In this document: positions 37,978 through 64,000 of the stretch, piece by piece
Position numbering within the stretch: position 1 is the stretch's first letter
Layout: each line of letters opens with the position of its first letter
IMG/VR virus record: IMGVR_UViG_3300027715_000146
Location: 2,569-66,568 of that record
Reading direction: 5' to 3' (one strand)
DNA length: 64,000 nucleotides
From: a virus
Lineage: Duplodnaviria; Caudoviricetes
Notes under the pieces: model-generated
Told to the model about the DNA's origin: nothing
What the model saw: only the letters and a program-made list of their open reading frames with translations
Databases searched by the model: none
Program-made: the position numbers and the translations under genes

Positions 37978-38898
37978 ATGGATCGATCTGAACTCCGGGC
38001 AAAAATTGCAATCGATCTGACCCGAAATAGAATCATTATGGCAGATCTTGCCGCCGGGGTCGGAAAGAAAGAATATTTATCACCCGGTCAACATGCGCCG
38101 AAAGGTACTACTGAGCAGACTGGTGCCCACGGTGGACGTTTTTACATCTCACAGATGATGGGGAAACTTGTCCGTCAAGCTGGTGAATTCAAAACGAAAT
38201 CATCTGAAGGGATGCAGGGCCAGTATCACGGGAAAGAAACGATACACGACGACCCGTATAATATACAGGGGTGGGATGTCGCCACGATAGACCCTCGTCT
38301 GGATACCAATGTCGCTAAGGCATATCCGTCAAATGTCGTAAAGATGGCAACGGTGCAGCGGCTTCAAACCATCCAAAAAGTCGAACCTGAAATGACCAAT
38401 ACCATGCAGGATATCGCTCAGGTATGCGGCGGGAAGTTAGAAGGTCTGGATTTCCGATTAAAGTCGCCTGAATCCACTCTTCGGAAGGTATACGAGAAAA
38501 TTAACGAATGCCCGTATTACGATCCACAAAACGCCGTATCGAACCTGAAGGATTTAGTCAGGTATACTCTCCTTTTCGAACCCGGGAATTATACCAATGG
38601 GGTGAAGAATTCCATCGACCTGATGAAACGACATGGGTTTGAACCGGTCGCCGTAAAGAACTATTGGGGATCAGAAGGGTATCAGGGAATAAACTGTAAC
38701 TTTAAGAATAAGGATGGCGTCGTATTTGAGTTACAGTTCCACACTCCGCAATCGATTGATATCAAAGAGAAGCAGTCACACCCACTCTATGAGAAGTTAC
38801 GGGTGACGAAGGATCCGAAAGAGATAAACCAGTTATCTGCACAGATAAGTAATCTGTGGAAGAGTGTTGAGCGACCACAGGGAGCTGATGCAATATGA
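37978..38898 (+). CDS. RelA/SpoT-fold nucleotidyltransferase, Tas1/Apk-like (p)ppApp synthetase candidate, with N-terminal leader
   Basis: LDFRLKS.ES..RK, KDLVRYT, VKNYW, YQGIN, FELQFHT, K..SH.LYE.LR. Confidence 0.75.
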   Translation: MDRSELRAKIAIDLTRNRIIMADLAAGVGKKEYLSPGQHAPKGTTEQTGAHGGRFYISQMMGKLVRQAGEFKTKSSEGMQGQYHGKETIHDDPYNIQGWDVATIDPRLDTNVAKAYPSNVVKMATVQRLQTIQKVEPEMTNTMQDIAQVCGGKLEGLDFRLKSPESTLRKVYEKINECPYYDPQNAVSNLKDLVRYTLLFEPGNYTNGVKNSIDLMKRHGFEPVAVKNYWGSEGYQGINCNFKNKDGVVFELQFHTPQSIDIKEKQSHPLYEKLRVTKDPKEINQLSAQISNLWKSVERPQGADAI

Positions 38899-39152
38899 AA
38901 ACATTTTATGTAGGGTATGAAGACGGGATGCCACAGGATGATCAGCATGTTATTACCGTGGTCCAGTTTGATCAGGATGGGGAATACCCCGCTCTCCGGT
39001 ATGACTGGAGGCAGAAACAGTTTGTATGGGATCAGTTTGTCCCGAAGTATCTGATGCACATCGCTCCGATGCAACAGATTAACGAACAGGACGTGCAGAA
39101 ATACATTGATATCATCAACGCGTCTGCTCAACGGACTCATCCGGATCTATAA
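38895..39152 (+). CDS. Small acidic protein, putative immunity/antitoxin
   Basis: 85 aa, ATGA-coupled to the synthetase. Assignment is from position only. Confidence 0.5.
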   Translation: MKTFYVGYEDGMPQDDQHVITVVQFDQDGEYPALRYDWRQKQFVWDQFVPKYLMHIAPMQQINEQDVQKYIDIINASAQRTHPDL

Positions 39153-39154
39153 TC

Positions 39155-39772
39155 ATGGATGCACTGGAATATATCAAATCAACCCGCCGGAGATTATTAG
39201 TATCATCTATTGATCTCGGGTGGAGATATATTTCGGATCCATCAAAACTCCCGGAAGGCCGTACATTGGAACAGACACGGTCCGGGAAATACCGATATGC
39301 CACAAAGCATAATCAACCGTCTGTCCAACATGCACCCGATACGTCATCGTTGAAGAAGTATCTTGCTGATAAAAGAGTATTAAGTGATTCCTCTCCTGAT
39401 GAGCGAGTGAAGTTTGGCACTGCTTTTGCCGCTCATGCGATTGATGAATATGAAAAGATGCAGCCGAAATTAGAGCGGCATGAGATAGTAGCAAACGAGT
39501 TATTCACATCAAAAGATGCATCAGGGAATGTTATTGGCGTATGTCATGCATTCATTAACAAAACCGGTGCGATTAATGTAACCTATATCGGATCGTTAGA
39601 ACGCGGTACCGGATCCGGCACGGCATTGATGAACCAGTTACATGCATGGGGAAAGGAACATGGCGCCAGCATGATGACACTGTACTCGCAAAATGATGCC
39701 AAAGAATTCTATATTAATCATTTTGGATTTGAATCTAATTCAAGAGATAATACATTATTTAAATGGCTGTAA
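39155..39772 (+). CDS. GNAT acetyltransferase with N-terminal leader
   Basis: RGTGSGTALM acetyl-CoA motif; AKEFY..HFGF. Confidence 0.75.
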   Translation: MDALEYIKSTRRRLLVSSIDLGWRYISDPSKLPEGRTLEQTRSGKYRYATKHNQPSVQHAPDTSSLKKYLADKRVLSDSSPDERVKFGTAFAAHAIDEYEKMQPKLERHEIVANELFTSKDASGNVIGVCHAFINKTGAINVTYIGSLERGTGSGTALMNQLHAWGKEHGASMMTLYSQNDAKEFYINHFGFESNSRDNTLFKWL

Positions 39773-40470
39773 CCTACACTAATGGTATGATTAACATCGG
39801 GGGACTGGTATCAGTATCTACGGTAGATTGGGTAGGATGTGCATCATGTGTAATCTTTTTTCGCGGCTGTCAGGGCCGGTGCTGGTATTGCCATAATAAG
39901 GAAATCTGTTCAGGGGAAGATTACCGGGATATCATTTCCATCGAGGCGTTTATTCGTTCCTGCTCATTTATGGTATCCGGAGTGGTGTTCTCCGGCGGGG
40001 AATGTACTCAGCAACCGGATCCGTTGATCCAGCTATGTAAAACCAGTAAATCAATTGGATTGAATACCTGCGTACACACAAACGGAATGAAACCATCAGT
40101 GATTGATACACTGATCAGAAAACGTCTGGTTGATCAGATATCGCTTGATGTAAAGACCAGCCCGGACCAGTATCATAAAATCATCGGGATACCGTATGCC
40201 GATGAAATAATCAACGAATCATTGCAACTATGCATCAATGCCCATAAGAGGGGGCTCGTCACTCTTGAATGCCATACTACGGTGGATGACGCTTCCGTAT
40301 TAGATCCGATCCGGGAGATGATCCCCTGTGACGTAAAATGGGTGCTGCAGCAGATCCGGCATGGGAATTACCAGTTTCCACTCGATGAACTGAAACAATT
40401 AGGAGAGAAATACCAGATATGTATCCGGTCAGAAGAGACGGGTGAGGTCTCTTTCAACAATCATCAATGA
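39763..40470 (+). CDS. nrdG: Anaerobic RNR activating radical SAM enzyme
   Basis: GCQGRCWYCHN, GVVFSGGECT, VHTNG, SLDVK. Confidence 0.85.
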   Translation: MAVTYTNGMINIGGLVSVSTVDWVGCASCVIFFRGCQGRCWYCHNKEICSGEDYRDIISIEAFIRSCSFMVSGVVFSGGECTQQPDPLIQLCKTSKSIGLNTCVHTNGMKPSVIDTLIRKRLVDQISLDVKTSPDQYHKIIGIPYADEIINESLQLCINAHKRGLVTLECHTTVDDASVLDPIREMIPCDVKWVLQQIRHGNYQFPLDELKQLGEKYQICIRSEETGEVSFNNHQ

Positions 40471-62947: not shown

Positions 62948-62986
62948 CTTTATATCTTTTTATTCGATATATCAGTAAGGTCATTT

Positions 62987-63280
62987 ATGGACATGGTAAT
63001 GCTTTCTCCAATTATCGGTGCTATTGCATATGCACTGATCGGACTGTTCAGATCATATCCTGCTGGTGAAGAGCCATCTGGTGCGAAATTCGTCGTCACC
63101 GTAGTCATCGGTATTGTCGCCGGTTACATTATGATGACTTCCGGAGTGGCTGTCACCGAGGCATCGTTCTTAAACGAGATGACGATCAATTCCACCCTGT
63201 ATATGGGCATCACCTATGCAGTGAATAAGGTCATATCCGGTATCTACGATTTCCTCTCTAAAAAGGCTGCATCAGCATAA
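62987..63280 (+). CDS. Small membrane protein, holin-like
   Basis: About three hydrophobic segments and a basic C-terminus. Confidence 0.45.
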   Translation: MDMVMLSPIIGAIAYALIGLFRSYPAGEEPSGAKFVVTVVIGIVAGYIMMTSGVAVTEASFLNEMTINSTLYMGITYAVNKVISGIYDFLSKKAASA

Positions 63281-63313
63281 CCTTTTTCCCTTTTTACTAC
63301 CACATATATCATC

Positions 63314-64000
63314 ATGCACGATGATATCCTTGATGCGTTACGGTATACCCGAGAACGCATCGTATCGGATTTACAGCAATCCAAACCTTATATCCCGGAT
63401 GGTTCACCATCTGATTTTGAATCAGGTCTTCATGTCAACTATAATGAACTTTCCAAATATATCCCGATCAATGTATTATTCGCCTTCCACCGGATGTCCC
63501 GTCAGGGAGAATGTTATATTGTCGGTGGTGCCGCACTGAATGTAGCAGCCCGGATATACCAGATGCTCCATTATGCTCCCGGTGACCCGAATGACTGGGA
63601 TATGTTTACTTCAGTTCACCCACAGCGTATCATGGAACTCTTCCCGGATGCTGTTCCAATCAGTGGTCAGGATGGACGAGTGTATACGGTAACGTTACCG
63701 AAGCATGATATCGAGATCAGCACGTTCAGAAAAGATGGAAAACGTGACACTTTTGGAGAGAACGTTATTGAACATCTCAATACCTGTGACTTTACGATCA
63801 ATGCGATCGCCATGACCCCTCACGGTCTTCTGATATCTCAACAGACGCTGGATGATATGAAAGAGAAACGACTCCGGTGTGTGGGAGATGCCAATGACCG
63901 GATCAACGAAGACAGTAACCGGGTAGTCAGGGCAATCCGGTTTGCATCCCGATACAATATGACCCTTGATGACGACCTGAGGCGAATCCTTACCCAATAT
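63314..64000 (+). CDS. Class II CCA-adding/poly(A)-polymerase-family nucleotidyltransferase, 3' truncated by window
   Basis: Own translation: CYIVGG, DWD, EISTFR, DFTINAIA, LRCVG...R..EDSNRVVRAIRFA. Frame open to the window end. Confidence 0.85.
   Translation, partial: MHDDILDALRYTRERIVSDLQQSKPYIPDGSPSDFESGLHVNYNELSKYIPINVLFAFHRMSRQGECYIVGGAALNVAARIYQMLHYAPGDPNDWDMFTSVHPQRIMELFPDAVPISGQDGRVYTVTLPKHDIEISTFRKDGKRDTFGENVIEHLNTCDFTINAIAMTPHGLLISQQTLDDMKEKRLRCVGDANDRINEDSNRVVRAIRFASRYNMTLDDDLRRILTQY

Follow-up and report, generated by a model that had tools for sequence, protein, structure and literature searches.

A portable mini-domain shared by a RelA/SpoT-type synthetase and an acetyltransferase of a probable archaeal tailed virus, with a possible role in capsid loading

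The DNA analysed here, hereafter the window, comprises 64,000 of the 66,568 bases of a single linear virus record (IMG/VR record IMGVR_UViG_3300027715_000146, completeness judged to be ~70%) and has a GC content of ~45%. It encodes a RelA/SpoT-type synthetase, a small open reading frame (ORF) of 85 amino acids (aa) and a GNAT acetyltransferase, whose genes and that of a ribonucleotide reductase (RNR) activase overlap or abut, and this arrangement therefore suggests one operon. As judged from sequence comparison, the synthetase and the GNAT both begin, over ~55 residues, with a copy of the same homologous portable module, which we call the tag. A third candidate for this module is a CCA-type nucleotidyltransferase encoded at the end of the window (Table 1).

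Table 1. Tagged genes and associated features, in window coordinates. E, expect value; HMM, hidden Markov model built from external sequences.
Feature	Position	Strand	Details
Synthetase tag	37978..38154	+	aa 1-59; core-motif HMM E 3e-13, leader HMM E 1.8e-13
Tagged RelA/SpoT-type synthetase	37978..38898	+	306 aa; tag, disordered linker aa 59-103 (~45 aa), catalytic domain aa ~110-306
85-aa ORF	38895..39152	+	overlaps synthetase stop by 4 nucleotides; translationally coupled
GNAT tag	39155..39307	+	aa 1-51; core-motif HMM E 2.5e-6, leader HMM E 5.3e-10
Tagged GNAT acetyltransferase	39155..39772	+	205 aa; Pfam Acetyltransf_1 at aa 112-192, E 3.1e-7
N-terminal extension of the CCA-type enzyme	63314..63448	+	45 aa; possible decayed tag
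CCA-adding / poly(A) polymerase-family nucleotidyltransferase	63314..64000	+	Pfam PolyA_pol E 7.3e-9; cut by contig end

An earlier note on this DNA had proposed that the three enzymes share an N-terminal leader. The peptides it named are encoded at 38020 (TRNRII) and 38071 (EYLSPGQ) in the synthetase, at 39182 (TRRRLL) and 39224 (RYISDPS) in the GNAT, and at 63332 (DALRYTRER) and 63386 (PYIPDG) in the CCA-type enzyme. Synthetase and GNAT each contain, without gaps, the 24-aa pattern Y-[LI]-S-x5-P-x-G-x-T-x6-G-x3-Y, at Y33-Y56 and Y25-Y48, respectively. When the three proteins were compared in pairs, BLASTP gave marginal or negative results (E 0.083, for synthetase and GNAT, 0.044 and 3.6), and the test therefore needed other sequences. 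HMMs made from two or three of the sequences found no additional copies in the contig. The external profiles exclude the window's own sequences; the core-motif profile (238 external instances) also excludes those of a related virus, G001, and close relatives, and the leader profile (13 external N-terminal leaders) includes two homologues of G001 proteins. Both profiles matched the synthetase and the GNAT (Table 1), and the third-best match of the core-motif HMM among the 763 contig ORFs reached only E 0.2. None of 2000 shuffles equalled the real score of either protein. A likeness by chance or composition, without a shared module, could appeal to the pairwise score of only E 0.083, but the external-only profiles (E 3e-13 to 2.5e-6), the shuffles and the presence of the motif in 250 further proteins (see below) refute it for the synthetase and the GNAT and leave it a negligible probability; it is live only for the N-terminus of the CCA-type enzyme. 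The leader proposed for the first two proteins thus withstood the shuffled controls, with the external-only HMMs in agreement, and searches for further fusions found the motif in G001 and in 250 representative proteins.

The core of the tag is a motif of ~36 aa, K-x-[RK]-[VI]-Y-[ILV]-x5-7-[AP]-P-x-G-x2-[VI]-x2-G-P-[RK]-G-G-x-[YF]-Y-[ED]. Across the 238 external instances, the first half is conserved as K (70%), [RK] (97%), Y (100%), P (100%, preceded by [APV]) and the glycine of P-x-G (85%), and the second half as G (97%) followed by P-[RK]-G(97%)-G(94%)-x-[YF](98%)-Y(99%). The residue after Y-Y is E in 63% and D in 10% of these instances, and a low-complexity linker follows this Y-Y-E or Y-Y-D end. 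N-terminal copies have a helix with the pattern L-x-x-K-I-x-x-D-L ahead of the motif. The GNAT tag is more divergent, with T-R-S-G-K in place of the usual G-P-R-G-G. Pfam models do not detect the motif, even in proteins with four or five copies.

AlphaFold2 predicted the isolated tag as a helix and a three-stranded sheet with a predicted local distance difference test score (pLDDT) of ~80. In the synthetase tag, the helix spans residues 4-27 and the strands 30-34, 46-48 and 54-58, the motif again having a pLDDT of ~80, and the mini-sheet carries Y33, P41-x-G43, G52-G53 and F55-Y56. The model of the full synthetase has the same helix (4-27), a hairpin at 44-58, disorder at 59-103 and a catalytic domain with pLDDT >95 over aa 120-306. 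A structure search with a 66-aa tag model found no solved structure alike (best Z 3.5). These models suggest a folded mini-module, consisting of a predicted amphipathic helix and a three-stranded mini-sheet, joined to the enzyme by a disordered linker; such a layout, a tag on a flexible tether, is as would be expected for a docking peptide. Within the helix of the synthetase tag, a short segment is duplicated (KIAIDLT / RIIMADL, window 37999-38061); G001 has this duplication too (KITLDLT / LKIIDLS), and all other tags lack it.

A homologue profile of the synthetase matched, in the PDB, the exported small alarmone synthetase of Streptomyces albidoflavus (8vx3, E 2.3e-48) and the type VI effector Tas1 (6ox6, E 3.1e-8), and Foldseek aligned the model to 8vx3 with a template-modelling (TM) score of 0.84. 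The Pfam RelA_SpoT match was weak (E 0.017). Among 59 homologues, D192, R195-Y196-T197 and E251-x-Q253-x-H255-T are invariant. By profile and model comparison, the C-terminal domain has the RelA/SpoT synthetase fold, and the protein is a candidate toxin of the small alarmone-synthetase type. Bacterial homologues of this domain carry N-terminal signal peptides or the head modules MuF, VG15 and minor-capsid-protein-2 (Phage_min_cap2); a Pfam scan of the 306-aa synthetase found no PF04233 (MuF / SPP1 gp7). Five bacterial homologues (P0013, P0022, P0023, P0036, P0053) have a different short motif that precedes the synthetase domain: K-Y-[NSD]-P-D-Q-x-R-D-x-x-G-R-F and then a run of glycines, at 33-71 aa from the N-terminus. 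As the core HMM misses this motif, it was not treated as the same module; by analogy, it could be a comparable tag of bacterial phages.

The 85-aa ORF has 61% identity to an ORF at the equivalent position in G001 and matched no Pfam or PHROG family; its position makes it a candidate immunity or antitoxin protein. The GNAT exceeded the gathering score of Acetyltransf_1 (31.1 bits vs 20.7). A homology search with it returned only itself, and G001 has no GNAT at the equivalent position. Tag and enzyme together align, as a unit, to aa 299-480 of a 1586-aa protein that contains five copies of the motif.

The related virus G001 (76 kb) encodes a synthetase 74% identical to that of the window, and this protein and unrelated proteins of 463, 206 and 645 aa start with the same tag; in a further protein, of 801 aa, the motif spans residues 96-123. 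Scans of viral contigs with an early leader alignment, as well as a metagenome scan with the 801-aa protein, returned only G001, and a protein-atlas look-up of the 801-aa protein gave weak leads only, to ADP-ribosyltransferases (ARTs), MuF and portal proteins. Six consecutive genes form an island in this virus (G001:43164-51753; L013:3164-11753). Three of them encode a C-terminal HExxH zincin domain matching PHROG 'minor head protein' families, and these are interleaved with the genes of the motif proteins of 801, 645 and 206 aa.

Using a five-sequence profile, we searched 1.84 billion representative proteins for the motif and found it in 250 at E <= 1e-3, of which 46 were at E <= 1e-10. Among 147 motif proteins examined, 82 had two copies and 27 had three or more (at least two in 109). 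The first copy was within 60 aa of the N-terminus in 81 of the 147, a copy stood at the protein end in nine, and the median spacing between copies was 241 aa. Proteins with 2-5 copies typically have one motif ahead of each enzyme domain, as in the orders motif - CCA+HD - motif - kinase (P0190), motif - motif - ParB - RelA/SpoT (P0144), motif - motif - ART (P0111) and motif - topoisomerase IB - motif (P0165). The short leader of the T4 kind to which the earlier note had likened the N-termini therefore gives way to a ~36-aa module, predicted to fold, that is also internal or C-terminal and present in two to five copies.

Pfam analysis of 134 motif proteins gave a wide range of partner domains. 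The most frequent were ADP-ribosyltransferase families including ART-PolyVal (about 14 proteins) and topoisomerase IB (12), followed by prohead proteases (Peptidase_S78 / S78_2) and DUF5661 (seven each), GNAT and DUF192 (five each), Phage_portal, PolyA_pol and S-adenosylmethionine (SAM) lyase (three each), and Phage_Mu_F (MuF; one). Further partners were zeta toxin, RelA/SpoT, ParB, HD, PI3/4-kinase-like domains, lethal-factor-like zincins and, in two proteins, rubrerythrin or EncFtn-like domains. One of the motif-linked ART domains resembles T4-type Alt and annotated minor head proteins. In P0166, DUF5661 ends at aa 237 and the motif directly follows at 239-274; DUF5661 could form an additional accessory part of the module.

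A strict DNA pattern of the motif occurred in only one of 185,579 prokaryote species genomes, a Pacearchaeota metagenome-assembled genome (MAG), versus 13 IMG/VR loci with GC contents of 28-69%. The motif is therefore one of viruses rather than of cells. Motif genes are often arranged in tandem. A 68%-GC viral contig (L025) has four in a row, the last of which shows weak similarity to S78 below the Pfam cut-off (aa 117-206, E 0.0016) and, directly after it, the motif (aa 232-267). At some low-GC motif loci the neighbours are of bacterial type (muramidase, RecA, gp32), so that the motif may not be restricted to archaeal viruses. In the Candidatus Pacearchaeota MAG, contig NZCX01000018.1 (L016) has five consecutive genes at 3-6972 (-), each with the motif at its start; one encodes a zeta toxin and a glutaredoxin, and two gave weak sub-threshold matches to DRAT-like ADP-ribosyltransferases.

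In a tblastn search of 50,697 phage records, the only carriers of the motif were the haloarchaeal tailed viruses HVTV-1, HVTV-2, HCTV-5, HCTV-1 and HCTV-16; tblastn of cultured phages with a four-copy protein gave no match. In HVTV-1, gp113 has the motif close to its N-terminus, gp115 (1313 aa, with zeta toxin and ADP-ribosyltransferase domains) carries it N-terminally, and gp116 has two copies at its C-terminus. The three genes lie around the MuF-like 'head assembly' gene gp114, upstream of the genes for prohead protease gp119 and major capsid protein gp120. In one homologue of the HVTV-1 MuF protein, the N-terminus itself bears the motif. Haloarchaeal tailed viruses were also the top matches, among cultured viruses, of the DNA polymerase B of the window (~25% identity), which makes a distant archaeal tailed virus the most likely source of the window, the host being probably archaeal.

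The CCA-type enzyme is the last gene of the contig, which stops at window position 64000. The contig ends have no overlap or end repeat, and the gene is therefore truncated. The encoded part exceeds the PolyA_pol gathering score (36.5 bits vs 23). Its N-terminal extension keeps R-x-R-I-V-x-D-L...K-x-Y-I and P-x-G and lacks G-P-R-G-G-x-Y-Y. In two leader profiles it was the next-best match after the synthetase and the GNAT (E 0.27 and 0.11), with 11.1 bits against a shuffled maximum of 7.1, and the match was confined to the first half of the motif (RERIVSDLQQSKPYIPDG). The core-motif HMM gave 3.0 bits, a score equalled by 15 of 2000 shuffles. Thus, of the third membership suggested by the earlier note, a weak first-half likeness stood, the core-motif HMM failed and membership is not demonstrable; the claimed DAL match with the GNAT carries no weight. 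The G001 orthologue lacks the 45-aa extension, homologous CCA enzymes (P0190, P0134, P0126) have the canonical motif ahead of the catalytic domain, and the extension aligns onto the P0190 motif with two gaps, keeping Y, P-x-G and one glycine. Because related CCA enzymes carry the full motif at the same position, and because of the G001 comparison and the P0190 alignment, we retain the reading of the extension as a decayed copy homologous to the tag, to which we give roughly an even chance.

With moderate confidence, we propose that the module is a portable tag that loads enzyme cargo into the capsid, in an archaeal-virus counterpart of the polyvalent-protein and MuF-toxin systems. This proposal draws on the company of prohead proteases, portal and MuF proteins, on the gene order in HVTV-1, on the cargo repertoire and on the MuF fusions of the synthetase domain. 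The cargo list (ARTs including ART-PolyVal, zeta toxin, GNAT, RelA/SpoT, ParB, zincins, SAM lyase, topoisomerase IB and CCA enzymes) agrees with the injected or polyvalent effectors known so far. According to two reports, such synthetase toxins are exported or delivered by a route that their N-terminal domain specifies, and MuF stands for the route through the phage head (PMC12226406; PMC12691689). In the proposed mechanism, the protein that bears the module would be docked by it, within the head under assembly, to the capsid shell, the scaffold or the portal, and the virion would enclose an exchangeable set of enzymes and free them into the next host cell with the DNA. The cargo of the present virus would be an ATP- or GTP-consuming alarmone-synthetase toxin and an acetyltransferase, possibly with a tRNA nucleotidyltransferase, and the 85-aa ORF would shield the producing cell from the synthetase. 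In the multi-domain relatives, a module precedes every enzyme domain, in a beads-on-a-string arrangement. The modularity and the head-protein company thus agree with the earlier suggestion of a modular leader that loads varied enzymes into the virion; the packaging itself we infer.

Several observations weigh against capsid loading. The tagged synthetase and GNAT genes are translationally coupled to the RNR activase gene and lie between the genes for DNA polymerase B and a TnpB-like protein, a setting of replication and nucleotide metabolism rather than a head module, and the contig has no head genes. The motif-gene cluster of G001 is flanked by thymidylate synthase and DNA methylase. Pfam analysis of 86 neighbours of motif genes at 13 other loci showed no clear excess of head genes, with two SU10 capsid proteins among many replication genes. 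The tags of the window lack an acidic residue after Y-Y, and virion proteomics or a packaging experiment on motif proteins was not found in the literature reached.

These gene settings bear on a rival explanation, in which the motif docks to a partner other than the capsid (viral DNA, a shared host target, or itself in an intracellular assembly) and the enzymes act in the infected cell without ever being packaged. The operon of the window genes with nucleotide-metabolism genes, the predominance of replication and modification genes in the neighbour tallies, the conserved basic residue in the glycine-rich turn (G-P-R-G-G) together with the conserved aromatics, and the resemblance of the synthetase and the small ORF to a self-contained toxin-antitoxin pair would all fit such docking. 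Nevertheless, we consider it rather unlikely, because it leaves unexplained the motif on prohead proteases, portal and MuF proteins, the HVTV-1 copies inside a head-assembly block, and the likeness of the cargo to injected polyvalent proteins.

The motif may instead be a joint or processing signal at the boundaries of polyprotein modules, cut by the head maturation protease or by neighbouring zincin peptidases, a role that would be compatible with packaging. T4-type head proteases cleave at hydrophobic-x-Glu sites, which the Y-Y-E end of the motif recalls, and this acidic end (Y-Y-E in 63% and Y-Y-D in 10% of instances) precedes a low-complexity linker. One copy typically stands ahead of each enzyme domain in multi-domain proteins, zincin genes are interleaved with motif genes in G001, and zincins are fused to the tag elsewhere. 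Peptidase processing has moreover been proposed for polyvalent proteins (Iyer et al., 2017; PMC5512222), which also counts in its favour. However, approximately a dozen conserved positions over ~36 residues and a predicted fold go far beyond the needs of a cleavage site, single-domain proteins with one N-terminal copy would gain nothing, and no cleavage has been observed. The window's two tags, which end GGRFYISQ (synthetase) and GKYRYATK (GNAT), have no Glu and hence no T4-type hydrophobic-x-Glu end. We regard a processing joint as distinctly unlikely.

A more far-reaching form of the capsid-loading proposal is that this unnamed ~36-aa mini-domain serves archaeal tailed viruses, and some phages as well, as a universal address label, placed on head protease, portal, MuF and >20 kinds of enzyme and docking all of them at one procapsid site. 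We put it forward tentatively, as quite possible though short of probable. If it is true, the motif would define the archaeal-virus equivalent of the injected polyvalent effectors, and its sequence could be used to list the whole injected arsenal from metagenomes and to load foreign proteins into such capsids.

The motif family resembles the polyvalent proteins described by Iyer, Burroughs, Anand, de Souza and Aravind (2017; PMC5512222) in its domain set (RelA/SpoT, GNAT, ART including ART-PolyVal, ParB, zincin peptidase, MuF), beads-on-a-string architecture, solo single-domain versions and proposed packaging in terminase-portal viruses. It differs in being defined by a repeated ~36-aa motif unseen by Pfam models, and in that its cultured carriers were found only among haloarchaeal viruses; polyvalent proteins are scarce in archaea according to the same report. 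Polyvalent proteins have at least two effector domains. The synthetase and the GNAT of the window each have a single enzyme domain, as in the 'solo versions' of PMC5512222, whereas motif-bearing relatives combine CCA+HD+kinase, ParB+RelA/SpoT or zeta toxin+ART. With the MuF polymorphic toxins and Apk2 (p)ppApp synthetase toxins (PMC12226406; PMC12691689), the window synthetase shares a homologous C-terminal synthetase domain and, in principle, an N-terminal part that presumably decides how the protein is delivered; downstream of it, a small ORF occupies the position of an immunity gene. Unlike them, it has a ~55-aa tag in place of the MuF domain, its host is probably archaeal and its toxin role is predicted.

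The logic proposed here, a short N-terminal address on unrelated proteins that are packed into the head and delivered with DNA, is also that of the capsid targeting of T4 internal proteins and Alt and of P1 DarB, in which the N-terminal 30 residues are sufficient to send a reporter to the capsid (PMC9024508). Compared with these targeting sequences, the motif module is longer, predicted to fold, often internal or repeated, and without proven cleavage, and T4-type tags end in a protease site that the window's tags lack. To our knowledge, the module has no sequence resemblance to T4 leaders. The tagged proteins fall outside the MuF and T4-leader families, since they lack a MuF domain, do not resemble T4 leaders and have no protease site where the tag ends. 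Encapsulins are HK97-fold compartments whose cargo-loading peptides are short and usually C-terminal. The module is similar to these peptides in being a short portable element on a flexible tether that would dock varied enzymes inside an HK97-fold shell, and the rubrerythrin or EncFtn-like domains of two motif proteins add to this similarity; the peptides are shorter, differ in their usual C-terminal position and are unrelated in sequence, and the shell partner of the module is hypothetical.

The motif is widespread and apparently undescribed, as Pfam models do not detect it and searches of the literature did not find it; what is new here is the motif itself and its apparent association with archaeal tailed viruses. 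Injected virion proteins are the first move of a virus against host defences, and those of archaeal viruses are almost unknown. If the motif labels injected proteins together with head protease, portal and MuF, their repertoire, which would include toxin-type alarmone synthetases, acetyltransferases, ADP-ribosyltransferases, zeta toxins, topoisomerases and tRNA enzymes, could be read straight from sequence. The packaging idea is directly testable, because the cultured haloarchaeal viruses HVTV-1, HCTV-5 and HCTV-1 carry the motif.

Large fibre-type proteins (LamG, PKD, PEGA, DUF2341) fill positions 1-33000 of the window, and an anaerobic RNR, DNA polymerase B and a set of RNA-repair enzymes are encoded 3' of this region. 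After the RNR activase gene lies a TnpB-like ORF (40512-41630, -), called by eye from its C-terminal zinc-finger CxxC pairs, with no family search. A different TnpB-like ORF of 406 aa is at the equivalent place in the related virus (L002:12041-13261, -), so that the site suggests an insertion hotspot. The C-terminal half of a 241-aa protein (41915-42640, -) matches Pfam Tad6, a type I Thoeris inhibitor (E 1.3e-18), and this protein is a candidate anti-defence gene product of a probable archaeal virus. Upstream of the CCA gene, a ~297-aa protein (62054-62947) and a 97-aa membrane-like protein (62987-63280) are encoded in an order that is kept in the related virus (L011:200-1442). The ~297-aa protein resembles the product of the ORF at 56926-57837 at both ends, and the two may therefore belong to a duplicated family.

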